Below the pieces are notes generated by a model that saw only the letters and a program-made list of their open reading frames with translations, was not told where the DNA came from and did not search any database. The translations under genes and the position numbers were made by a program. Shown piece by piece: positions 1 to 10,118 of a stretch of DNA of 10,118 nucleotides (positions are counted from its first letter, which is position 1; the number at the start of each line of letters is the position of its first letter). Source of the stretch: an archaeon (GTDB lineage Archaea > Asgardarchaeota > Thorarchaeia > Thorarchaeales > Thorarchaeaceae); the NCBI GenBank assembly GCA_024275415.1, contig JAJRZD010000124.1, positions 1 to 10,118 of the forward strand, given 5' to 3'.

Positions 1-123
1 AACGCAGGGGCATCGATTGTGGTACAAGGTACCTATATCGAAAAGAACGTTCTGGGCGATAAGGGAGCTGAATTGCGAGAAATTATAAAGAGCATCAAGG
101 ATGCCGGGGCGAAAAAGACCTGA
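1..123 (+). CDS. 3' end of a probable geranylgeranylglyceryl-phosphate (GGGP) synthase, partial
   Basis: Frame 1 is open from the window edge to TGA 121-123: NAGASIVVQGTYIEKNVLGDKGAELREIIKSIKDAGAKKT*. The AGAxxvVxGTxxE segment resembles the last beta-strand and helix of group II GGGP synthases. Only 40 aa are visible. Confidence 0.6.
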   Translation, partial: NAGASIVVQGTYIEKNVLGDKGAELREIIKSIKDAGAKKT

Positions 124-158
124 TTTACGAAGAAACCGGTGTATTCAATCTAATCAGG

Positions 159-203
159 TTTAAATACTAGTCCCGTGTAAGAACTTCAAGACCCTTCGGG
201 AGG
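159..203 (+). promoter_or_regulatory. TATA box (TTTAAATA 159-166) and SD (GGGAGG 198-203) of the Roadblock gene
   Basis: Canonical archaeal TATA sequence about 47 nt upstream of ATG 213; GGGAGG ends 9 nt before the ATG. Confidence 0.6.
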
Positions 204-212
204 AAAATCAAT

Positions 213-608
213 ATGTCCTCGAAGAGCGAAATCCTCACTGGCCTGCTTGAAGACCTAAGTAGAGCCTCCCAAGGCAACATCCAAGCGAGCTTGATTATCT
301 CAAGATCTCAAGGATTAACGATATGCTCGCACTATCCGGATAATGCCCCTGATGGTGTAATTCCCGATGAAGATGTCATTGCAGGGAGGACAACTCAAAT
401 CCAGATGGCGACTGCTAAAGTATTCAAGGAACTGAAACGGGGTCCGCTCATCCGGATGCTCATCGAGGGTGACAATGGGTATGTGATTATCGGCGGTGCT
501 GGCGAGGACGCCATCCTTGCGGTACTGACCAACAGACGAGTGAATCTGGGATATCTCTTCTTTATGCTGAGCAAGATTGCGCGTCAGATTGCACAGACCC
601 TGACCTGA
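213..608 (+). CDS. Roadblock/LC7 (MglB-like) domain protein, 131 aa
   Basis: Roadblock pattern: N-terminal helix, 'ASLIISRSQGLTI' hairpin, central helix, 'RMLIEGDNGYVII..AGEDAILAVLT..RVNLGYLFFML..IARQI'. Good SD and TATA upstream. Confidence 0.88.
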   Translation: MSSKSEILTGLLEDLSRASQGNIQASLIISRSQGLTICSHYPDNAPDGVIPDEDVIAGRTTQIQMATAKVFKELKRGPLIRMLIEGDNGYVIIGGAGEDAILAVLTNRRVNLGYLFFMLSKIARQIAQTLT

Positions 609-722
609 GCCAGTTGTTTCGGTCGTGCGTTATCTCCCGCGAGCTAGTCCTATTCCATCTTGTTCTTCCGTCACTTTTATGAGCCATCTACTGGACACCT
701 TTGTTAGTTCAAGGTGAATAAT

Positions 723-1655
723 GTGCCAGAAGAGAAGTCAAATGACAAACCCGCTGAATCCGATGTTGAAGATCCATGGGCAAAATGGAAGGAGGCTGGA
801 GTGGTAGCCCGCGAGGCCCTTGAGATTGCCCGACCTATGGTACAACCTGGCACTAAAGTGATTGATATTGTCAATGCCACGGAGAACTATATCCGGGAGA
901 AGGCAACTGGGATTGCCTTTCCCTGTAACGTGTCACTGAACAATATCGCTGCGCACTATACATCCCCTCTCAATGATGAAACAGAGATTAAAGAAGGGGA
1001 TCTTGTTACTGTAGATGTGGGCGCACATGTTGACGGCTGTATTGCGGACACCGCCTTCACTATTGCATTGAACCCTGATCATGAAGCCCTAGTGAAGGCT
1101 GCCGAGGATGCAACGACCATAGCCATCAAAATGATGCGTCCGGGAGCAAAACTGAATACAATTGGCGCTCTTATCGAAGACACTATCGAAGGTGCAGGCT
1201 TCAAACCGATCAAGCAACTGTCAGGCCACCAGATGAAAGAGTACGAACTGCATTCGGACAAGCAGGTTCCCTGTGTATCCGGCAAGTCTGAGGTGGTCAT
1301 TGAGGAGGGCGAGATTTACGCAGTGGAGACCTTCGCATCCACAGGCTCTGGAAATGTTTCTGACCTTCCAAACCCTGTCATCTATCAGCTGCTACCAATA
1401 CGAGTTCCTGTGCGATTCAAGGGAACCCGGCAATTCCTCGGGATTGCACGGAAAGCGTACGGAGAATTCCCATTTGCAGAACGGTGGATCGCAGAACAGA
1501 TGGGCCACGCATCCATGAAAATGGCCATCCGCGAACTCTCCCAGAATGGCGCCCTTGTCGCTCATCACATCCTCGCAGAAGAAAAGGGCGAGTTTGTTGC
1601 ACAGCATGAACATACTGTGTTGATTACTGAGAAAGGTCGTGTCCAGACCACCTGA
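723..1655 (+). CDS. map: Methionine aminopeptidase type II
   Basis: AFPCNVSLNNIAAHYT, VDVGAHVDGCIADTA, GHQ, AVETF and AQHEHT carry the metal and substrate ligands; the type II helical insert is present. Start moved from GTG 714 to in-frame GTG 723 because AGGTGA (712-717) is an SD 5 nt upstream of it. Confidence 0.95.
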   Translation: MPEEKSNDKPAESDVEDPWAKWKEAGVVAREALEIARPMVQPGTKVIDIVNATENYIREKATGIAFPCNVSLNNIAAHYTSPLNDETEIKEGDLVTVDVGAHVDGCIADTAFTIALNPDHEALVKAAEDATTIAIKMMRPGAKLNTIGALIEDTIEGAGFKPIKQLSGHQMKEYELHSDKQVPCVSGKSEVVIEEGEIYAVETFASTGSGNVSDLPNPVIYQLLPIRVPVRFKGTRQFLGIARKAYGEFPFAERWIAEQMGHASMKMAIRELSQNGALVAHHILAEEKGEFVAQHEHTVLITEKGRVQTT

Positions 1656-1687
1656 CCACCTTGTGATATGTCGATGAGAATTTCACA

Positions 1688-1699
1688 ATTATTAAAAGC
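1688..1699 (+). promoter_or_regulatory. Possible TATA element upstream of tfb
   Basis: AT-rich ATTATTAAAAG in the map-tfb intergenic region. About 100 nt from the proposed start, so it implies a long leader; the assignment is tentative. Confidence 0.35.
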
Positions 1700-1800
1700 A
1701 CATTTTACCCATATTTAGAGTGCGGGTTCGGGAGTCTGTCTTTCACAACAATGATTTCTCTGGGACTTCAGACAGCCTCTCATCAGTTGGAGGATTACCA

Positions 1801-2769
1801 GTGGACGATATGGGTGATACAGCACCAAAAGGAGGAGGCACATCTAATTCTGCCAAGGTCTTCGAAGGGTGTCCAGAATGTGGAAACGAATCGGTCGTCG
1901 AAGATCTTTCCCGTGGCGAAAGGGTATGTGGTGAATGTGGGCTTGTCCTTTCCGACCATAGAATCGATACAGGCGCAGAGTGGCGTGCTTTCAGCTCTGA
2001 AGAGTCTGACGCTCGCAGTCGAGTCGGGGCACCACTAAGATATACTGTTCATGACAAGGGTCTTTCTACTATTATTGACTGGAGAGACAAGGACATCTCA
2101 GGAAAGAAACTGAGTCCTAGTCGTCGTTCCGAAATTTACAGGCTCAGAAAGTGGCAGATCCGTTCAAGAGTCCATAGTTCGCTTGATAGGAATCTGGCTC
2201 AGGCAATGTCTGAATTGGAGCGACTTGCATCCCAGCTCGGGATACCTCAACCTATCCGTGAACAATCGGCTCTACTTTACAGGAAAGCAATCATCAAGAA
2301 GCTAGTCAGGGGACGCTCAATCGAGGCGATGGTGGCTGCAACCCTATATGCCGCCTGCAGAATACGTCAGAAGCCTCGACCATTAGATGAAGTCGCGGAT
2401 GCATCTCGCGTGGACAAGAAAAAGCTTGGGCAATGCTATCGGTTGCTCCTGCGAAAGCTCGATATCCAAATTCCTCTGTCAAACCCGGTTGACTACATCT
2501 CTAGGTTTGCTACAGAGCTTGACCTTTCCAGTACTGTTCAGCTTCGTACCATCGAGATACTCAAGAGAAGTCGCGATATCGGACTGACCATCGGGCGGGA
2601 TCCATTGGGACTGGCGGCAGCGGCAATATACGTGGCATCTATCATGCTTGATGAACGGCGCACTCAACGAGAGATAGCCGAGGTGGCACGAGTCACAGAG
2701 GTGACCGTGCGAAACCGGTACAAAGAGATCGTAAGAAAACTCAATATCGGCCCGTTGAGTCTGCCCTAA
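1801..2769 (+). CDS. tfb: Transcription initiation factor B (TFB/TFIIB)
   Basis: Zn ribbon CPECG...CGECG, B-reader IDTGAEWRAF, HDKGLST, RLRKWQ, two cyclin repeats (LVRGRSIE; GRDPLGLAAAAIY) and C-terminal HTH RTQREIA..VTEVTVRNRYKE. Start is probably GTG 1801 (GGAGGA 1789-1794 lies 6 nt upstream) or ATG 1810, not 1720. Confidence 0.96.
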   Translation: MDDMGDTAPKGGGTSNSAKVFEGCPECGNESVVEDLSRGERVCGECGLVLSDHRIDTGAEWRAFSSEESDARSRVGAPLRYTVHDKGLSTIIDWRDKDISGKKLSPSRRSEIYRLRKWQIRSRVHSSLDRNLAQAMSELERLASQLGIPQPIREQSALLYRKAIIKKLVRGRSIEAMVAATLYAACRIRQKPRPLDEVADASRVDKKKLGQCYRLLLRKLDIQIPLSNPVDYISRFATELDLSSTVQLRTIEILKRSRDIGLTIGRDPLGLAAAAIYVASIMLDERRTQREIAEVARVTEVTVRNRYKEIVRKLNIGPLSLP

Positions 2770-2842
2770 TCCCGACTATTCTGCCATGATTATTTGCATG
2801 TTCCAGTGATCTCACACTCGAAGAACACCGTACTGCCTGAAT

Positions 2843-3184
2843 CTACCTGCGTTTCCCACCTGTGAATGACCAATCAACAACAATCTGATCCTCGGGAAAA
2901 CCAAGCTTGTTCAAAATCTCAGTTATCATCGCTCTGTGGTCTCCTTGCAGCTCGACATGACCGTGCTTTGCAGCTCCACCACACGCAAGTTTGCTTTTCA
3001 ATTTCGAGGCCAAATCTCCGAGGTCAATGCTCTTGTCAAACCCCTCAACGATGGTATAGAGCCGACCCCACTTTCTACGTTCGATGCTCACAGTTATCCT
3101 AGCCTCCTCCTGTGCGATCGTTTCGCAGACGCACAAATCACTTGGGAGGCCGCAGTTTGGGCAAATTCCGCCATCATCAGACAC
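2843..3184 (-). CDS. sui1: Archaeal translation initiation factor aIF1 (SUI1 family), about 113 aa
   Basis: ICPNCGLPSDLCVCE N-terminus typical of archaeal aIF1, then ERRKWGR..TIVEG, LKSKLACGG and ELQGDHR. Start GTG 3184 with SD AGGAGT (3200-3195). The ORF-track extension to 3298 runs through the promoter. Confidence 0.95.
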   Translation of the reverse strand: MSDDGGICPNCGLPSDLCVCETIAQEEARITVSIERRKWGRLYTIVEGFDKSIDLGDLASKLKSKLACGGAAKHGHVELQGDHRAMITEILNKLGFPEDQIVVDWSFTGGKRR

Positions 3185-3200
3185 TAAGTTACTTACTCCT

Positions 3201-3222
3201 TTTAGCAGTTCGTTTAGCAGTT
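3201..3222. repeat. Direct repeat TTTAGCAGTT x2 (3201-3210, 3213-3222) in the sui1 leader
   Basis: Exact 10-bp copies with period 12, abutting the sui1 SD. Confidence 0.8.
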
Positions 3223-3249
3223 TGCTGGGTACATTAGTCAACGATACCC

Positions 3250-3292
3250 AATATAAGTGATTTCTATAGGTTGTTCGACAATAGTAAATAGA
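3250..3292. promoter_or_regulatory. Divergent promoter region between sui1 and the radical SAM gene
   Basis: Minus strand CTTATATT (3257-3250) preceded by purine-rich TAGAAA fits BRE-TATA for sui1. Plus strand AGTAAATAG (3283-3291) is a weaker TATA candidate about 30 nt before ATG 3317. Confidence 0.45.
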
Positions 3293-3316
3293 CCGCATGT
3301 AACGTGTTTCTTAGAT

Positions 3317-4903
3317 ATGACTGAACGAATCCTTATCACAGATGCTCTAAGCGCAGGAAGCGGCAAACGAAGGAGTTCCCGAGACTCGATAGGGTGCGGC
3401 CCAAGAGCAATCGCCGGAGTGCTTGAGAAGGCAGGACTGGGCTGTCGGATACAACGAGTGGAAACCCTCCTCAAGTTTCCAAAATCTGTACGGAATTATG
3501 ATCATCTAGCGATTAGTGCGATGACTATGGATTATCCTGTTGTGTTTCAAACCATTTCTCTATGGAGAAGGTCAAAACCCCGTGGAAAGATTCTCCTTGG
3601 TGGTCCTATCGCCTCAGACTCTGAGCGCGTCCTGATGGCCCTGAAGCCTGATATTCTTGTCGTAGGAGAGGGAGAGGGGACATTGAATGACCTAGTTTCC
3701 CAAGGTTATCCGAACGAGAACATTGACTTGTCTGAGATACATGGTATCGGGTTCATTCATGACAAAGCCCCCGTACTAACACCACAGAGACCTCTTTTGG
3801 ATCAATCTGTGCTTTGGGACACGTATCCCCCCTCTACCACCCGAATCATTGACTACCCTGTATATGAGGCGAGCAAAGTATACGTTGAAACTGTACGGGG
3901 GTGTTCGAATTACAAGCGAACAACTCTCACATTGCCTGATGGACGGGCATGCTCTGAATGTGGCATTTGTGATTCTGAAACCCTGCCAGATCGACTGACC
4001 TGCCCTGAAGACATTCCTCCCGGGTGTGGGTTTTGTAGTGTTCCTGCAGTGTGGGGCCCTCCTCGTTCGCGACCAGTCGAGTCCATTCTCGAAGAGGTGT
4101 CTGCGCTCCTTGATCTTGGAGTCCATCGCATTGTGCTAGAAGCCCCTGATTTTCTTGACTATATGCGTGGCCCGTTCCCAATGACTGACCCCTGCCAACC
4201 TACCGCAAACTTGGCGCAGATTACTTCCCTGCTTTCTCTAATAATGAAACTTCCAGCGTTTTCCGAGGGAACTGCACATCTGTCAATCGAGAACATGAAG
4301 GCATGCCTTTTCACCGAAGATGTGGCACAAGCACTCTCAGATGTGCTGGACTCTTCTTCTCCAAACATAGGGCTTGAAACTGGTTCAGAGGAACATTCCA
4401 AAGCAATAGGGAAATGCGGGACTCCCCAGAATGTCATCGATGCAGTACGACTTGCAAAGCACTATGGCATGACTCCCTATATCTATTTCATCTATGGTAT
4501 GCCCGGCGAGAGCGAACAGACGATCGCTGAGTCCATTGAAGTAATGAAACAGGCTCACGAAGCAGGGGCCGAGCGAATTATCCTGTACGGCTTTAGACCA
4601 TTACCTCGCTCCGCCTTTGCAGAGTTTCCATCTCCAGAACACAGGGATCCATTGGGCGAACGATTACGAGCCGAAGCGGCACGGATAAACAGGCTGCGAA
4701 AGGATGACCTCGTTGGGAAAGTCCTTCGTGGAATCGCAGCCGAGCCATCTTGGGAACGACATGGCTATACAATGGTCTACCCACTAGGTGAAGGGCCAAT
4801 AATGACCGTACAGGGAGGCTTCTCCCCCGGAACATTGTTAGACATTGAAATAACCCATGTGCTCAGCCCTGGGCTGGTTGGAGGGAAAATAATCTCATCT
4901 TGA
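3317..4903 (+). CDS. Radical SAM protein with B12-binding-like N-terminal domain and TRAM-like C-terminus; function unknown
   Basis: N-terminal Rossmann-like segment (DHLAISAMTMDY...ILLGGPIAS...DILVVGEGE), ETVRGC...GCGFC, RSRPVESILEEV, GLETGSE, YFIYGMPGES, and a C-terminal beta-rich tail (GTLLDIEITHV..GLVGGKII). Start ATG 3317 preferred because 3257 lies in the promoter region. Confidence 0.85.
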   Translation: MTERILITDALSAGSGKRRSSRDSIGCGPRAIAGVLEKAGLGCRIQRVETLLKFPKSVRNYDHLAISAMTMDYPVVFQTISLWRRSKPRGKILLGGPIASDSERVLMALKPDILVVGEGEGTLNDLVSQGYPNENIDLSEIHGIGFIHDKAPVLTPQRPLLDQSVLWDTYPPSTTRIIDYPVYEASKVYVETVRGCSNYKRTTLTLPDGRACSECGICDSETLPDRLTCPEDIPPGCGFCSVPAVWGPPRSRPVESILEEVSALLDLGVHRIVLEAPDFLDYMRGPFPMTDPCQPTANLAQITSLLSLIMKLPAFSEGTAHLSIENMKACLFTEDVAQALSDVLDSSSPNIGLETGSEEHSKAIGKCGTPQNVIDAVRLAKHYGMTPYIYFIYGMPGESEQTIAESIEVMKQAHEAGAERIILYGFRPLPRSAFAEFPSPEHRDPLGERLRAEAARINRLRKDDLVGKVLRGIAAEPSWERHGYTMVYPLGEGPIMTVQGGFSPGTLLDIEITHVLSPGLVGGKIISS

Positions 4904-4938
4904 AACCATGGTGCCTAAAGAAAACTTCATATGGCTTC

Positions 4939-4958
4939 TTCTCACGCTTTCGTGAGAG
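4939..4958. promoter_or_regulatory. Inverted repeat TCTCACG-CTTT-CGTGAGA just upstream of rpo12
   Basis: Perfect 7-bp arms (4940-4946 / 4951-4957) plus a possible G-U pair, overlapping the purine-rich GAGAGAGGGA before ATG 4969. Function not established. Confidence 0.45.
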
Positions 4959-4968
4959 AGGGATATAC

Positions 4969-5112
4969 ATGGTCTACATATGCCATTCATGCAAATATGA
5001 AGTAACCTCCGAAGGTCTAAAAGCGCTACCGGGCGTGAAATGTCCTTTCTGTGGAGGCCGTATTCTATACAAGATCAGACCCCCAGTCGTGAAGCGTGTT
5101 AAGGGCGTATAG
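4969..5112 (+). CDS. rpo12: DNA-directed RNA polymerase subunit Rpo12 (RpoP), 47 aa
   Basis: MVYICHSCKYEV...VKCPFCGGRILYKIRPPVVKRVKGV: YxCxxC...CPxCGxRILxKxRP Zn-ribbon signature. Real start ATG 4969, not 4900. Confidence 0.93.
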   Translation: MVYICHSCKYEVTSEGLKALPGVKCPFCGGRILYKIRPPVVKRVKGV

Positions 5113-5117
5113 ATAAT

Positions 5118-5216
5118 CTATCCCTTGAATATCAACCAAGCAGCTGCCACTATCGAGGCTATGAATAGGAATATGAAGAGCCCAGAGATGATTTTCTTCT
5201 TGTAGGCATATCTCAT
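5118..5216 (-). CDS. Unannotated 32-aa single-pass membrane micro-protein (MRYAYKKKIISGLFIFLFIASIVAAAWLIFKG)
   Basis: Hand-translated: ATG 5216-5214 to TAG 5120-5118. SD GGGGTGA (5228-5222, containing the get3 stop) is 5 nt upstream. The ORF fills the get3-rpo12 gap to within 5 nt at each end. Basic N-terminus, 22 uncharged mostly hydrophobic residues, then KG. Confidence 0.72.
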   Translation of the reverse strand: MRYAYKKKIISGLFIFLFIASIVAAAWLIFKG

Positions 5217-5221
5217 CGTGT

Positions 5222-6181
5222 TCACCCCTTGTTTAGGATTGCTCCTAATTCTGATAGTCCCTCAATCCCTCGGATCTCGTTATCGAATAGAGGCACTTCC
5301 GTGATGTTCATGTCGTTGAATAGGTCTCGGATGTCCCTAAGATTCCGTTGTTGCATGTTTCTTCTTGAGGAACAGAATTTACATTCAAGATTCTCAGGTA
5401 TAAGTTGATTGATGATGATGTTTGAGGCCGGGATGTGCCATGCATTGAGACTACCAAGAAGCCTCTGGGTTTCAAACACTGCCATGGCCTCTGGTATCGT
5501 GACGACTACAAACTGGGTCGTGTCAGGATCTGAGAGTTCGATTCGTGCCATTCGGATTTTGTCTTTTGTATTCTGAAGCATCTGCCATGCTGTTTCTTCC
5601 TGCTCTCCTCCGCCTCCTAACATCGAACGAAGCCCTGCCATCATGGGACCAAGTCTTTGACGCAGGGTGAGCACTTTCCCAAGCCAACTGTCCAGTAGGT
5701 CTGGCAATTCGAGGAGTTTGAGAGTGTGCCCAGTAGGTGCCGTATCAAATATCACTCTATCATATGATGAGTCCTCTATGAACTCCAAGATCTTTCCGAA
5801 AGCCATTGCTTCATCCGAACCAGGCGGTGACATACCGCTCATGTCCCCTAAGAGATTGGATGCCATCTGCATGTCAGGCCCCGCAGCACCGCTTCCCAGC
5901 GTTTCTTGAAACTCCTGCATACCTTTCTCCGTATCTATCTCCATGCCCCACAGATTATCAAATCCTTTCACCGGGACTGGCTCACCACCAGACAGATCCT
6001 GAGCAAAGCTGTCGCTAAGACTATGAGCTGGGTCTGTGGAAAGGACAAGGGTTCTGAGACCTCTCTTTGCAGAAAGCACTGCCAATGCGCCAGCACAACT
6101 GGTCTTTCCTACTCCACCCTTGCCACCGCTCAGAATGAATTTTATCGTGTCGCTCTCAACTATCTCTTTTATGGTCTTCAT
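5222..6181 (-). CDS. ArsA/Get3 (TRC40)-family SIMIBI ATPase, Get3-like
   Basis: Deviant Walker A GGKGGVGKT, switch I STDPAHSLSD, switch II DTAPTGHT, Met/Gly-rich helical subdomain, CxxC (CKFC) near the C-terminus, A-loop VPLFDNEIRG. Single ATPase domain of 319 aa. Confidence 0.93.
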   Translation of the reverse strand: MKTIKEIVESDTIKFILSGGKGGVGKTSCAGALAVLSAKRGLRTLVLSTDPAHSLSDSFAQDLSGGEPVPVKGFDNLWGMEIDTEKGMQEFQETLGSGAAGPDMQMASNLLGDMSGMSPPGSDEAMAFGKILEFIEDSSYDRVIFDTAPTGHTLKLLELPDLLDSWLGKVLTLRQRLGPMMAGLRSMLGGGGEQEETAWQMLQNTKDKIRMARIELSDPDTTQFVVVTIPEAMAVFETQRLLGSLNAWHIPASNIIINQLIPENLECKFCSSRRNMQQRNLRDIRDLFNDMNITEVPLFDNEIRGIEGLSELGAILNKG

Positions 6182-6212
6182 CGGAAATCAACTCGGACAG
6201 CTCAATGAAACG

Positions 6213-6220
6213 CTATTAAG
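6213..6220 (-). promoter_or_regulatory. Possible TATA box (CTTAATAG) for get3
   Basis: About 32 nt upstream of ATG 6181 in the 59-nt udp-get3 gap, with no obvious SD; consistent with a short-leader transcript. Confidence 0.35.
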
Positions 6221-6240
6221 GACTTGCTTATTGCAAGGCT

Positions 6241-7068
6241 CTACAAGCCTCTGATCCAATACCGTTTACCGTTCTGCTCTTTTTCTTTGTCCATCTCATG
6301 GAGTATTCTTACTGCTTCGTTACCACATTTAATCACTTCTGCTTCCCCCTTGACCTCAAACTCATCATACACACGGTTTGCATACACCGCACATACAGCT
6401 CCCGTTCTGAACCCGTAGATGTTTCCTAATGTGAACAGTGTTGCCGCTTCCATCTCGAAATTCACGACGTTCGCCTGCTGAAGGTCATTGATGAGTATCT
6501 CGCTAAAGCTCTGTGTGTATCCATCATATCCGGGTCTGGACTGGCCAAGATAGAATGAATCAGTCGAAGCTGAGGTCCCTAGATGATATTTGATGCCTAG
6601 CGAGTCTGCTGCTTCTATTAGCGCCAGAATGACCTCATAGGATGCGCTTGCTGGGTACTCCGGCCTGACATATTGCTTGCTCGTCCCTTCGAGTCTTACT
6701 GCTCCAGTGGATATGATCAAGTCCCCAATCTCAATGTTCTCCTTCAGGGTTGCACAAGACCCAACGCGTAGGAATGTGTTCGCTCCGACATTCGCAAGCT
6801 CCTCCACCACGATTGCGGTTCCGGGTCCTCCAATCCCAGTCGAACAAGCAGATATAGGTACTGATTTGTAACGTCCTGTGTGTGTTACAAACTGCCTGTG
6901 AACAGCGACCTCTGTGAAATCGTCCCATGCACTGCTTATTTTTCTGACTCTTTGAGGATCGCCAGGGATGATCACAGTTTCTGCGACATCTCCTTCTTTC
7001 ACTTCTAAATGGTATTGTTTTCTTTCTGGTGTTTCTGGACGCTGAGCTGAAACCCTTCGTGCATTCAT
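6241..7068 (-). CDS. udp: Uridine phosphorylase (PNP/UDP family 1)
   Basis: QYHL, IIPGDPQRV, HRQF, STGIGGPG, FLRVGS, DSFYLGQSR (uracil-binding Gln/Arg as in E. coli Udp) and NFEME. Confidence 0.9.
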   Translation of the reverse strand: MNARRVSAQRPETPERKQYHLEVKEGDVAETVIIPGDPQRVRKISSAWDDFTEVAVHRQFVTHTGRYKSVPISACSTGIGGPGTAIVVEELANVGANTFLRVGSCATLKENIEIGDLIISTGAVRLEGTSKQYVRPEYPASASYEVILALIEAADSLGIKYHLGTSASTDSFYLGQSRPGYDGYTQSFSEILINDLQQANVVNFEMEAATLFTLGNIYGFRTGAVCAVYANRVYDEFEVKGEAEVIKCGNEAVRILHEMDKEKEQNGKRYWIRGL

Positions 7069-7183
7069 GACAATCGAATCGTAAATGCGACCTTCTCTGT
7101 TATTTCACTTTCGAAGATGCCTGCGACATGCATTTAACGTCAGACTTACTACCACATCTCTATCGGAGATATGTTGGCTGTTA

Positions 7184-8077
7184 ATGATGACAGAACGATT
7201 AGATGAGATGGATTGGCTCTCAATCGGAAAGCGCGCTCGATTGTACCGCCTTATGTATGAACACGGTCCTGGCAATGGCACCGTGTTGATACTACCGATA
7301 GATCAAGGAATGGAACACGGACCATCAACATTCTTCCCCAACCCTGACTCTGCAAGCCCTGAATACCAGTATCGCCTTGCTGACGAGGGTGGTTTTTCTG
7401 GGATTGCGCTTCATTTGGGTCTCGCAGAGAAGTACAGTAGTCCGTTTGCCGGGAAAGTCCCATTGGTTCTCAAGATCAATGGGAAGACTCGTATCCCCTC
7501 GGACTTGCATGCGCTCTCTCCTATGACTGCCTCTGTAGAGGATGCAGTACGATTAGGTGCTGATGCGATTGGCTATACGCTCTATGTAGGAAGCACTAAC
7601 CAAGTGGCAGATTTCACCCAGTTCCGGAAGGTGAAGGCTGATGCGGAGCGGTATGGTATGCCCATTATCTTGTGGTCTTATCCTCGTGGCGAAGCTGTAG
7701 AGCAGAAAGGAGGGAAGAACTCACTCTATGCAGTGGATTACGCAGCCAGAGTGGCAGACGAGCTCGGGGCTGATTTCGTAAAGTTGAATGTTCCTGTTGA
7801 TGACCCAGAGCGTCGTTCTGAGCAACCCCCTCCATATGACTCATTGGAATTGTCTTATGAGGAGATGGTGCGAAAGGTTATCAAGACTGCTGGAAAGACA
7901 AAGGTCTTGTTCTCAGGTGGGAGCAGACTAGGGGATAATGACCTACTGTATCGCGCGAAGGTGTGTCTTACAGAAGGAGCCGCCGGACTCATCTTTGGCC
8001 GGAATCTTTGGCAAAGACCAATGAAAGAAGCCCTCAAGATAACAGCAATGATTAAAGATGTCATGTTGTCTATCTAA
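7184..8077 (+). CDS. Class I fructose-bisphosphate aldolase, DhnA/FbaB type
   Basis: LPIDQGMEHGP, LVLKING, AVRLGADAIGYTLYVGS, WSYPRG (Trp/Tyr/Arg as in Thermoproteus tenax FBPA), ELGADFVK (Schiff-base Lys), SGG and IFGRN.WQ. Start probably ATG 7184 or 7187 (7208 possible), not 7085. Confidence 0.9.
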   Translation: MMTERLDEMDWLSIGKRARLYRLMYEHGPGNGTVLILPIDQGMEHGPSTFFPNPDSASPEYQYRLADEGGFSGIALHLGLAEKYSSPFAGKVPLVLKINGKTRIPSDLHALSPMTASVEDAVRLGADAIGYTLYVGSTNQVADFTQFRKVKADAERYGMPIILWSYPRGEAVEQKGGKNSLYAVDYAARVADELGADFVKLNVPVDDPERRSEQPPPYDSLELSYEEMVRKVIKTAGKTKVLFSGGSRLGDNDLLYRAKVCLTEGAAGLIFGRNLWQRPMKEALKITAMIKDVMLSI

Positions 8078-8093
8078 GTTGTGCCATCGACAC

Positions 8094-8101
8094 TATTATA
8101 T
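8094..8101 (+). promoter_or_regulatory. Probable TATA box (TATTATAT) for fbp, implying a leader of about 115 nt
   Basis: Best TATA-like sequence in the 162-nt intergenic region. SD-like GGAG at 8225-8228. Confidence 0.45.
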
Positions 8102-8132
8102 GGGCGGAGAATAGCGGGTGAGTCAAATAAAA

Positions 8133-8237
8133 AGCGGGTTCTGACAAATCCGAAATGGCTTTAACAGCATGAAATCAGAAACCCGTTCGTGAGGGACGCG
8201 TTCTAGCTTTCCCTACAGACAAATGGAGCGAGTGTAG
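8133..8237 (+). other. Structured 5' leader / candidate cis-regulatory RNA upstream of fbp
   Basis: 12-bp stem 8133-8144 / 8175-8187 (one bulge, one G-U), second stem GTGAGGGA 8189-8196 / TCCCTAC 8210-8216, alternative stem CTACA 8213-8217 / TGTAG 8233-8237. Confidence 0.4.
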
Positions 8238-8239
8238 TA

Positions 8240-9388
8240 ATGGTCGAAACCACTATCAGCGTGATCAAAGCTGACATCGGCTCTCTTGCAGGACATGTCG
8301 TGGTTCCTGATTTTCTGTTCGAATTGGCACGGAAGGAACTCAAGGCTGGTGTCGAAAACAAGATTATCAACGATTTCTACGTGACGAATGCAGGTGATGA
8401 TTTAGAGCTGATCATGACTCATAACAAAGGAGAGAATAATGAAGAAGTTCACAGGCTGGCTTTTGAAACCTTCTTGAAAGGAACAGAACTTGCCCGTGAA
8501 AAGAAAATCTATGCTGCTGGCCAGGACATCCTCTCGGACACCTTTAGCGGGAATGTGAAAGGAATGGGTCCTGGGTCGGCAGAGATGACAATCGAGGAGA
8601 GAAAATCCGAGCCATTTGCGATACTCATGGCTGATAAGACAGAGCCTGGCGCGTTCAATCTCCCTCTGTTCAAAATATTCGCGGACCCCTTCAATACGGC
8701 CGGCCTTGTCATCGATCCAAATCTCCATGACGGATTCAGGTTTGTCATTCAGGACATCATGAAAGATGTGCCATGCTTTGTTGAGATGAAGTGTCCCGAG
8801 GAGATGTACGATGTCCTCGCTCTTCTGGGAAGCACCGGCAGGTTCACTATCAAGAAGGTCTATCGTGCCGATGGGATGGTCTGCGCTTCTGTGAGTACCG
8901 ACAAGCTTCATGCTGTCGCAGGGAAATATGTTGGGAAAGATGATCCAGTCGCAATTATCCGAGCACATTCAGGTCTCCCCGCCATGGGTGAGATTCTGGA
9001 AGCATTCACACTCCCGCATCTAGTGTCCGGTTGGATGAGAGGCTCCCATACTGGCCCGCTCATCCCTGTTGGTCTCAAGGACTCGAGATGTACACGATTC
9101 GATGGACCTCCCAGAGTCATCGGCTTAGGATTTCAGGTCAGCAACGGTATGCTTGTTGGCCCAGTTGACCTCTTCGATGATGTCGCTTTTGATATCACCC
9201 GACAACGCGCGATGGAAGTTTCAGACTATCTTCGAAGACATGGACCATTCCAGCCTCACCGTCTCAGCGACGATCAAATGGAGTATACCACTCTCCCAAA
9301 GGTGCTATCGGCTTGTGCCAACCGCTTCGTGGAGGAAGAAATAGTACCAAAGGGCACGGTCAAGGATACTTCCGACTCAGCGGAATGA
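8240..9388 (+). CDS. fbp: Bifunctional fructose-1,6-bisphosphate aldolase/phosphatase (class V FBPase)
   Basis: KADIGS.AGH, GDD, GQD, GNVKGMGPG.AE, DKTEPGAFN, DPFNTAGL, YVGKDDP (Schiff-base Lys and catalytic Tyr), GWMRGSH, FDGPPRV, RRHGPF.PHRL and EYTT are all intact. Confidence 0.97.
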   Translation: MVETTISVIKADIGSLAGHVVVPDFLFELARKELKAGVENKIINDFYVTNAGDDLELIMTHNKGENNEEVHRLAFETFLKGTELAREKKIYAAGQDILSDTFSGNVKGMGPGSAEMTIEERKSEPFAILMADKTEPGAFNLPLFKIFADPFNTAGLVIDPNLHDGFRFVIQDIMKDVPCFVEMKCPEEMYDVLALLGSTGRFTIKKVYRADGMVCASVSTDKLHAVAGKYVGKDDPVAIIRAHSGLPAMGEILEAFTLPHLVSGWMRGSHTGPLIPVGLKDSRCTRFDGPPRVIGLGFQVSNGMLVGPVDLFDDVAFDITRQRAMEVSDYLRRHGPFQPHRLSDDQMEYTTLPKVLSACANRFVEEEIVPKGTVKDTSDSAE

Positions 9389-9396
9389 AATGGTTA

Positions 9397-9430
9397 GACG
9401 GGACTTTTGTTCCCGTCCAATACTCTTTTT
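9397..9430 (+). terminator. Hairpin plus T-tract terminator after fbp, between convergent fbp and parvulin genes
   Basis: GACGGGA (9397-9403) / TCCCGTC (9411-9417) perfect 7-bp stem, followed by TACTCTTTTT. Confidence 0.65.
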
Positions 9431-9478
9431 GATATTTGCCCGGAACTAGAAATTGCGTTCTTTATGAACTAATCATTT

Positions 9479-9769
9479 CTAAGCAGTGCGTCTAATGATA
9501 TGATATCCAAACTTTGTCTTGACGGGTTCATTGGTCATTTGTCCTGGGTTCAAAGCAAAAGTAGCTTTTTCGAACTCCGGCACCATGCTTCCCTTCCCAA
9601 AGAATCCAAGGTCTCCACCTTTTTTCTTCGATGGGCATGTGCTATGGAGCTTTGCCATTTTTGCAAAGTCTTCTCCTTCCTTTATCTTGCTGATAATTTC
9701 TAGTGCCTTACTGTGTTTCTCGACCAGAATATGACTTGCGCGAACTTTTCCCGCTTTACCTTTTGCCAA
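9479..9769 (-). CDS. ppiC: Single-domain parvulin (PpiC/Par10-type peptidyl-prolyl cis-trans isomerase), 96 aa
   Basis: [17 protein letters not shown]...[17 protein letters not shown] and [11 protein letters not shown]. Start TTG 9769 with SD GAGGTG (9782-9777) 7 nt upstream; the ORF-track extension to 9937 overlaps the divergent gene. Confidence 0.93.
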
Positions 9770-9910
9770 TATATGACACCTCATGATGTGGTTATTACTG
9801 CTCTCTGCAAAGGTCAAGTTAAGTCTGTCCAAATGGCTTTCTTGCCATAATGTAATTGTTTTATCGGTAGATGAACAATTACTATACCTTGGGAAGGTGT
9901 GATGTGCAGG

Positions 9911-10118
9911 ATGAAAGTAAGTCTGTTTCATGAACATGGCGGTCCGGATGTGTTAGAGTATACTGATTTTCCTACTCCTAGTCCAGAGCCGGATCAGGTG
10001 CTGGTAGAAATAAAAGCAGTGGCGCTAAATCATCTCGACCTTTTTGTCCGAGGTGGCATTCCGGGAATGACAGTAGAAATGCCCCACATTCTCGGAAGTG
10101 ATATCTCTGGTGTAGTCA
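9911..10118 (+). CDS. 5' part of a medium-chain dehydrogenase/reductase, quinone-oxidoreductase-like, partial
   Basis: Hand-translated [49 protein letters not shown]...[12 protein letters not shown], a GroES-like MDR N-terminus. NHLD and GSD replace the catalytic-Zn Cys and GHE motif. SD-like AGGTGTGA upstream. Runs off the window. Confidence 0.88.

Follow-up and report, generated by a model that had tools for sequence, protein, structure and literature searches.

The motif CX3CX2C is the usual handle for recognizing radical S-adenosylmethionine (SAM) enzymes and for assigning the ligands of their cluster, and the locus described here raises the question of how those ligands should be assigned when the motif has been pulled apart. 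The locus lies on contig JAJRZD010000124.1 (assembly GCA_024275415.1) of an archaeon of the Thorarchaeaceae. Positions 1 to 10,118 of the forward strand were analyzed, and this whole stretch of 10,118 nucleotides is called the window below. It encodes a radical SAM protein, P0002, that reads ETVRG-C-x15-CSECGIC-x10-CPEDIPPG-CGFC, with exactly 40 residues from the first Cys to the CxxC. The Cys codons are at 3902, 3950, 3959, 3968, 4001, 4025 and 4034 and correspond to C196, C212, C215, C218, C229, C237 and C240, where residue numbers refer to the 528-residue P0002 counted from the methionine at 3317. The first-pass annotation, made from the sequence of the window without database searches, had recorded both the 40-residue gap and four extra cysteines in the arrangement CxxCxxC...CP, and translation confirmed them at these codons. 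P0002 has 12 cysteines, of which seven fall in residues 196–240; a chance cluster was rejected because only those seven are conserved across 53 homologues. P0002 belongs to an uncharacterized family of three-domain radical SAM enzymes found in Asgard archaea, Korarchaeota and Thermoproteota. NCBI names the homologues 'B12-binding domain-containing radical SAM protein', and no paper on the family was found in the open-access literature and bioRxiv.

The conservation alignment used throughout comprises 53 diverse homologues at 31–71% identity, and R194, C196, S197, N198, G236, C237 and C240 are invariant in it. The best point of reference among characterized enzymes is MgmA (also QCMT), the cobalamin-dependent radical SAM glutamine C-methyltransferase of methyl-coenzyme M reductase (TIGR04014; PDB 9CCB; PMC11796369). 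When P0002 is aligned to MgmA with HMMER, VYVETVRGCS pairs with YIETHRGCP, and IPPGCGFCSVP pairs with CPGNCTFCQVP. The MgmA profile TIGR04014 matches the gene in two pieces, 3404–3907 (model positions 15–170) and 4022–4555 (model positions 172–336). The gap between them, 3908–4021, is 38 codons long and constitutes an insertion within the CX3C spacer. Distant relatives outside the P0002 family all have a plain CX3CX2C. Because the three cysteines are invariant, align to the CX3CX2C of MgmA and flank an insert that the profile skips, the predicted ligands of the SAM cluster are C196, C237 and C240, in the spacing CX40CX2C instead of CX3CX2C. One close homologue of the Thorarchaeota type (P0010) has GGGFC for GCGFC, replacing the second SAM-cluster Cys by Gly; it may represent a sequencing error or an inactive copy.

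The four remaining cysteines of the segment behave differently from these three. The first-pass annotation had proposed that aligning homologues would tell which cysteines are invariant and whether the insert is optional. The three predicted SAM-cluster ligands are found in 53/53 sequences and the four others in 46–47/53, and the latter are optional as a block. Full-length representatives at 50% identity carry either all four (40/46) or none (6/46). A census of 283 full-length homologues gave four insert cysteines in 231, five in 1, none in about 47 and one to three in 0; a few homologues that appeared to have one to three were artefacts of a pattern that had stopped at the CxxC of the insert, and these were set aside. 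The four insert cysteines are thus one unit, kept or lost as a block. Within the insert, the CxxC and CP spacing is fixed and the first Cys is mostly x2 away, with x3 in 6 representatives (which gives CX3CX2C), x4 in 1 and x11 in 1. The Cys-bearing members also retain G216 (26/47), R226 (36/47), P230 (46/47) and I233 (47/47). A fifth insert Cys, placed just after the third (C-x-S-D-C or S-Y-C), was seen in Heimdallarchaeota-type members (L068:5580-5699, L070:1966-2085) and in P0124.

The Cys-free members are Crenarchaeota: Fervidicoccus fontis, Pyrodictium occultum, Hyperthermus butylicus and Pyrofollis japonicus. They retain a proline-rich loop of 18–24 residues, of the type SNY-x-FP-x-L-...-LP-...-KP-x-PG. 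Rooting a likelihood tree on MgmA-like proteins puts four-Cys proteins on all basal branches; 15 Cys-free proteins group in a single nested clade (support 99), and one more stands alone. The Cys-free clade persists (support 71), still with two changes, if the loop is excised before the tree is built. The branch that splits the P0002 family from the MgmA-like proteins, which were the chosen outgroup, has a support of 92–100. Judged from this tree, the four-Cys state is ancestral and has been lost twice, with the main loss in the crenarchaeal clade of Pyrodictium, Hyperthermus and Fervidicoccus. Since a clade of orthologues carries a Cys-free proline-rich loop instead, the four-Cys site is accessory and dispensable for the core chemistry.

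Structure prediction bears on whether the insert is an ordered part of the protein. AlphaFold2, given the 53-sequence alignment, returned a model with a mean pLDDT of 94.6 and a pTM of 0.93. The first-pass annotation had also called for this check, and the insert came out ordered, at a pLDDT of 92–97; it is mainly coil, with a short helix at 223–227 just ahead of C229–P230. The model predicts a B12-like Rossmann domain followed by a radical SAM core and a TRAM-like domain, and it is equally close to MgmA and to the methylthiotransferases MiaB and RimO. Foldseek and VIA-align gave a Z of 29.5 to MgmA (373 residues aligned, 25% identity) and of 28.2–28.3 to MiaB, RimO and MtaB (MiaB 28.3, RimO 28.2; 402–420 aligned over residues 1–528). 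The B12 radical SAM enzymes TsrM, TokK, CysS and OxsB fall at a Z of 20–24, and the predicted model, which has a partial TIM-barrel core, aligns to many solved radical SAM enzymes at a Z of 14–29. At the C-terminus, the alignments to MiaB and RimO extend to residue 528, the RimO fragment 2qgq covers 181–526, and the alignment to TIGR00089 extends to the last model position; no TRAM hit is listed in the Pfam scan of P0002. The expectation that motif-based annotation could miss or mis-score such a protein held in part. The Pfam alignment to PF04055 (Radical_SAM) does begin only after the insert, but it still scores 67.4 bits against a gathering cut-off of 29.5 (E 2.2e-18), and the NCBI name of the homologues includes the words radical SAM.

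From the likeness to MgmA, in particular the GGP/GEGE and G-x-E-x-G-S motifs, the chemistry of the family is probably cobalamin-dependent C-methylation. Besides a PduO-type adenosyltransferase, the genome encodes three B12-binding proteins with strong matches, and use of a cobamide by the host is plausible. The gene neighborhood suggests that the substrate may be an RNA or protein of the information-processing machinery. In 66 of 80 related loci, including those of Baldr, Odin and Bathyarchaeia, rpoP (encoding RNA polymerase subunit P) is directly downstream on the same strand, and in the Thorarchaeota-type loci the upstream genes are those for aIF1, TFB and methionine aminopeptidase. Tentatively, we think of the enzyme as one that would C-methylate an RNA or protein of transcription or translation.

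The best overall explanation of the locus, to which we assign a probability of about 0.55, is a SAM cluster ligated as CX40CX2C together with an ordered spacer carrying a second Cys-ligated [4Fe-4S] site. As to the metal itself, the balance tips somewhat toward a [4Fe-4S] cluster on C212, C215, C218 and C229. The motif CxxC(G)xC...CP, with its Gly in 26/47 and its Pro in 46/47, points that way, as do the CX3CX2C variants. A profile confined to the 40-residue insert was also run against all PDB sequences, and the best 60 matches were inspected. They are mostly chains of the 2x[4Fe-4S] ferredoxin type, each of them non-significant (E 0.17–2.8), and include PsaC, which is over-represented in PDB, ferredoxin, NuoI/NDUFS8, the PFOR delta subunit and a 7Fe ferredoxin; we take them as a lead and no more. 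No alcohol dehydrogenase is among these 60, though alcohol dehydrogenases are abundant in PDB. The gap between the CxxCxxC and the CP is 10 residues in the insert and 3 in the ferredoxin type; the pattern itself is conserved. An ESM Atlas feature search with residues 192–245 scored no better than 0.81, a value expected by chance.

In mechanistic terms, the 40-residue spacer would be an ordered excursion from the cluster-binding loop that holds a second, fully Cys-ligated metal site. Because this site is tethered 15 residues past the first SAM-cluster ligand and 7 ahead of the second, it should lie near the SAM cluster, presumably on the face of the loop where external reductants normally dock. 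The metal would staple the long loop and, if it is an Fe–S cluster, might also provide an accessory entry for the electron with which the SAM cluster is reduced. The site stands outside the bond-making chemistry, because a whole orthologous clade has swapped it for the Cys-free proline-rich loop. A more ambitious version can be drawn, in which a complete single-cluster ferredoxin module is nested in the CX3CX2C loop as the physiological electron gate of a cobalamin-dependent C-methyltransferase that makes a so far unrecognized modification on an RNA or protein of transcription or translation, perhaps one linked to RNA polymerase subunit P, in archaea of the Asgard, Korarchaeota and Thermoproteota groups, while the Cys-free clade has switched to direct docking of the external reductant. 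We regard that version as doubtful, though worth stating.

A number of observations weigh against the [4Fe-4S] reading and its extensions. An entire clade lives without the site, so any relay is not obligatory, and the 'built-in electron relay' suggested at first pass would be dispensable. The B12-binding Pfam domain (PF02310) passes only marginally, at 32.6 bits against a cut-off of 32.1. A search of the 92.9%-complete genome turned up neither CobS nor CbiB, which act in late cobamide assembly, so cobamide would need to be scavenged, and scavenging is the supply route that the gene content suggests. In 20 Thermoproteota stretches (L092–L111, Cys-free orthologues included), no rpoP-like zinc-ribbon open reading frame (ORF) adjoins the gene, so the linkage to rpoP is not universal. 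The 'ferredoxin-like' label of the first-pass annotation found no firm support, since no Pfam family, Fer4 included, matches the insert (searched as 56-aa and 27-aa pieces at E<=10) and the ferredoxin matches in PDB are only non-significant. The first insert Cys is variably spaced (x2, x3, x4 and x11), some C2H2 zinc fingers occur among the weak PDB matches, and the structural zinc motif of alcohol dehydrogenase is a similar CX2CX2CX7C. Finally, the block loss of four cysteines in favor of a hydrophobic proline-rich loop, as in the Pyrodictium, Hyperthermus and Fervidicoccus-type orthologues, is classic behavior for a structural zinc. Those points that concern the metal lend themselves to a different account, that the metal of the insert is mononuclear and structural, either Zn(Cys)4 or a rubredoxin-like Fe, and that it only staples the loop and has no redox role. 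CxxCG doubles as a zinc-knuckle signature, and a rubredoxin-like iron is found in the tetraether synthase GDGT-MAS. Sterics do not decide the matter, because four cysteines within about 17–18 residues hold zinc in alcohol dehydrogenase and a cubane in endonuclease III; the [4Fe-4S] loop of endonuclease III and MutY is CX6CX2CX5C, so four cysteines within 17 residues can hold a cubane, and CX2CX2CX10C could hold either. What speaks against a structural metal is that the weak PDB matches are mostly [4Fe-4S] ferredoxin-type proteins with alcohol dehydrogenase missing from the best 60, that the near-invariant CP and the CX3CX2C variants are typical of Fe–S sites, and that the model has coil and the short helix around the cysteines instead of beta-hairpin knuckles. 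We hold the structural metal as a tentative second choice, less probable than [4Fe-4S] and well ahead of anything else considered. That the insert cysteines bind no metal and are disulfides or free thiols of a surface loop is hardly credible: four cysteines, unvarying in their CxxC and CP spacing, persist across Asgard, Korarchaeota and Thermoproteota at 31–71% identity, the all-or-none pattern suits a four-ligand site, and these are cytoplasmic enzymes of lineages generally taken to be mostly anaerobic.

Two further alternatives concern the SAM cluster and the chemistry. On the sequence of P0002 by itself it is arithmetically possible, as the first-pass annotation pointed out, that the SAM cluster sits on C229-x7-C237-x2-C240 (CX7CX2C) and that C196 joins C212, C215 and C218 in a site elsewhere. 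The homologues speak strongly against this. C196 is invariant and pairs with the first of the cluster cysteines in MgmA, about 47 homologues that have no C229 retain C196, C237 and C240, and C229 always co-occurs with C212, C215 and C218. We reject the CX7CX2C ligation as nearly untenable, and of the two arrangements put forward at first pass it is CX40CX2C, with a separate module in the SAM-cluster loop, that the alignment to MgmA and the block behavior of the insert cysteines uphold. The other alternative is that an Fe–S cluster of the insert participates in the reaction, for example by donating or carrying sulfur as the auxiliary cluster of MiaB, RimO and MtaB does, so that the enzyme would be a methylthiotransferase with a relocated cluster. 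Its fold, the TRAM-like domain included, is as near to MiaB, RimO and MtaB (Z 28) as to MgmA, and, as the N-terminal three-Cys site of those enzymes is missing, a replacement cluster at another place would be logical. With regard to that site, no column of the N-terminal domain (residues 1–180) has Cys in at least half of the 53 sequences, and C27 and C43 occur in only 10–11/53; therefore, the auxiliary-cluster site of the methylthiotransferases is absent from the P0002 family. With four cysteines at the insert, no iron would have a free coordination position; about 47 orthologues of the same three-domain build lack insert Cys altogether; and the N-terminal domain, which is without conserved Cys, bears GGP/GEGE motifs of the B12 type in common with MgmA. 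A sulfur-donating cluster is accordingly contradicted on three sides (no open iron site, the Cys-free orthologues and the N-terminal domain), and we rate it as highly improbable. The identification of P0002 as a methylthiotransferase was rejected also on its TIGR00089 score, 45.6 bits against a cut-off of 251. Among these possibilities we retain the CX40CX2C SAM cluster with a [4Fe-4S] site in its spacer as the working explanation.

The features of the locus are collected in Table 1. The open frame of the radical SAM gene extends upstream to a GTG at 3257 (frame 3257–4903, +, 548 aa). The true start is probably M21 of that ORF, at 3317 (MTERIL...), because this is where the collection record of P0002 and all its homologues start. 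This genome carries one copy of the gene, and the closest homologues of P0002 are named Thorarchaeota. P0002 is acidic, with a pI of 5.5 against a family median of 9.1.

Table 1. Coordinates of the radical SAM gene, its predicted sites and domains, and its adjoining genes in the window.
Feature	Position	Strand	Remarks
Radical SAM protein P0002, coding sequence	3317..4903	+	528 aa plus stop; homology match covers 3317-4900
N-terminal Rossmann-type B12-binding-like domain, GGP and GEGE motifs	3404..3694	+	PF02310; motifs align with cobamide-binding MgmA 9CCB
C196, predicted first SAM-cluster ligand	3902..3904	+	Invariant 53/53; aligns with first Cys of MgmA RGCPGNCTFC
40-residue insert S197-G236, family-specific loop, ordered in the model	3905..4024	+	Skipped by TIGR04014 profile; pLDDT 92-97
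CxxCxxC (C212, C215, C218), three putative accessory-site ligands	3950..3970	+	In 46-47/53; kept or lost with C229
C229-P230 ('CP'), fourth putative accessory-site ligand	4001..4006	+	C 47/47, P 46/47 of Cys-bearing members
Radical SAM core, Pfam match starting after the insert at model position 10	4022..4540	+	PF04055; residues 256-428 of the 548-aa frame
CGFC (C237, C240), predicted second and third SAM-cluster ligands	4025..4036	+	Invariant 53/53; aligns with CTFC of MgmA and RimO
C-terminal five-stranded TRAM-like domain (predicted), residues 466-528	4712..4900	+	DSSP strands 469-527; structural alignments to MiaB/RimO
rpoP (RNA polymerase subunit P/Rpo12)	4969..5112	+	Pfam Zn_ribbon_RPAB4; 65 nt past radical SAM stop
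aIF1/SUI1, divergent upstream neighbor	2843..3298	-	Pfam SUI1; same position in 62/80 loci, nearly all Thorarchaeota-like

The family is patchy in Asgard archaea, Korarchaeota and Thermoproteota. Among 151 Asgard genomes, 70 have it, and its presence there follows taxonomic families closely (for example, 31/32 and 16/17 genomes in two of them versus 0/29 and 0/14 in another two). The Korarchaeota-type phylum has it in 25 of 32 genomes and Thermoproteota in 37 of 301. Across GTDB, a pattern scan recovered it from 397 species genomes. None of the named homologue matches bears a euryarchaeal name, although no search aimed at euryarchaeal genomes was made. There are some irregular copies. In one Asgard genome, the gene lies in two overlapping frames (G135:C11:24148-25715), and in five others, two Asgard and three Korarchaeota-type (G047, G023, G163, G164 and G167), the match is interrupted by one in-frame stop codon (TAA, TGA or TAG). 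Pseudogenization, sequencing errors or recoding might account for these copies.

With regard to the neighbors, the start of rpoP is the ATG at 4969, which is residue 24 of its ORF; the longer ORF that begins with a TTG at 4900 is artefactual. The aIF1/SUI1 frame of 151 aa has its SUI1 domain only in residues 65–135 and at its annotated start lies 18 bp from the radical SAM gene; its true start may be further downstream. The remainder of the window (213–2769 and 5222–9937) is ordinary for Asgard and includes genes for Roadblock/LC7, methionine aminopeptidase, TFB and an ArsA/Get3-type ATPase, as well as for a phosphorylase of the purine/MTA type, an aldolase of the DeoC/LacD type, a PF01950 (FBPase_3) fructose-1,6-bisphosphatase and a PpiC-type isomerase. 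Elsewhere, in Thermoproteota stretch L094 (gene at 1074–2356, -), the radical SAM gene is divergent from a PhoU-like gene and a tRNA-splicing endonuclease gene, an upstream layout common to four Thermoproteota stretches in all. In two more (L093:4105-5172 and L110:1434-2498), the gene is convergent with one for an LPG_synthase_TM membrane protein.

On this ligand assignment, the first spacer of the SAM-cluster motif can be stretched to 40 residues in this family and is able to host a second, putative metal centre. Should that centre be a [4Fe-4S] cluster, the family would amount to a natural experiment on electron delivery to the SAM cluster, in which the module-bearing orthologues (Asgard, Bathyarchaeia and Korarchaeota) and the module-free ones (Pyrodictium and Hyperthermus) are ready-made controls for each other. 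Asgard archaea are the closest prokaryotic relatives of eukaryotes, and a conserved single-copy Asgard enzyme encoded beside transcription and translation genes may point to a so far unrecognized modification of RNA or protein.

It remains to place P0002 among the known systems. MgmA is its best match in both sequence and fold (phmmer 1.3e-16; VIA Z 29.5). The two have in common a Rossmann B12 domain with GGP/GEGE, a radical SAM core with G-x-E-x-G-S and a C-terminal domain; they differ in that MgmA is insert-free, with a plain CX3CX2C (RGCPGNCTFC), and P0002 has CX40CX2C. Identity with MgmA itself was rejected: P0002 scores 100.2 bits on TIGR04014 against an equivalog cut-off of 360, and the substrate, McrA (PF02249), was not found in the 92.9%-complete genome, in a search for which the controls M. 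jannaschii and M. acetivorans were positive. The methylthiotransferases MiaB, RimO and MtaB (TIGR00089; PDB 7MJX, 4JC0) have the same three-domain layout, including a C-terminal TRAM-type barrel, at only 16–18% identity. Their three extra cysteines are in the N-terminal domain, whereas the four of P0002 are inside the SAM-cluster loop. Grs, Gmm, Cgm and Ted, the B12 radical SAM enzymes of archaeal lipids, are described as a set of Gmm/Grs homologues; P0002 has its best matches in MgmA and the methylthiotransferases.

No description of a metal-binding module nested inside CX3CX2C was found in the open-access literature and bioRxiv, so the comparisons for the insert itself are with unrelated proteins. 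The four-Cys loops of endonuclease III/MutY and of alcohol dehydrogenase are no more than analogies for what the insert might bind, each having one metal centre in a protruding loop. A lengthened first spacer is known from QueE, the 7-carboxy-7-deazaguanine synthase, whose CX14CX2C has been described as 'one extended loop' (PMC4389238). Its spacer is 14 residues compared to 40 in P0002, and QueE is an unrelated family with a different fold. To our knowledge, that loop contains no metal ligands. Auxiliary clusters of radical SAM enzymes are otherwise mostly in C-terminal barrel extensions (PMC10470005). The glycyl-radical activating enzymes have a ferredoxin-like auxiliary domain with eight Cys and an unsettled function, while PFL-AE and class III RNR-AE are without it (PMC13450708). 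Like P0002, they have a Cys-rich module of ferredoxin type added to a radical SAM core. Their auxiliary domain is inserted just after the CX3CX2C, which stays intact. In these enzymes, the eight cysteines form a separate domain with up to two clusters, whereas in P0002, from an unrelated family, the four cysteines are within the motif itself.

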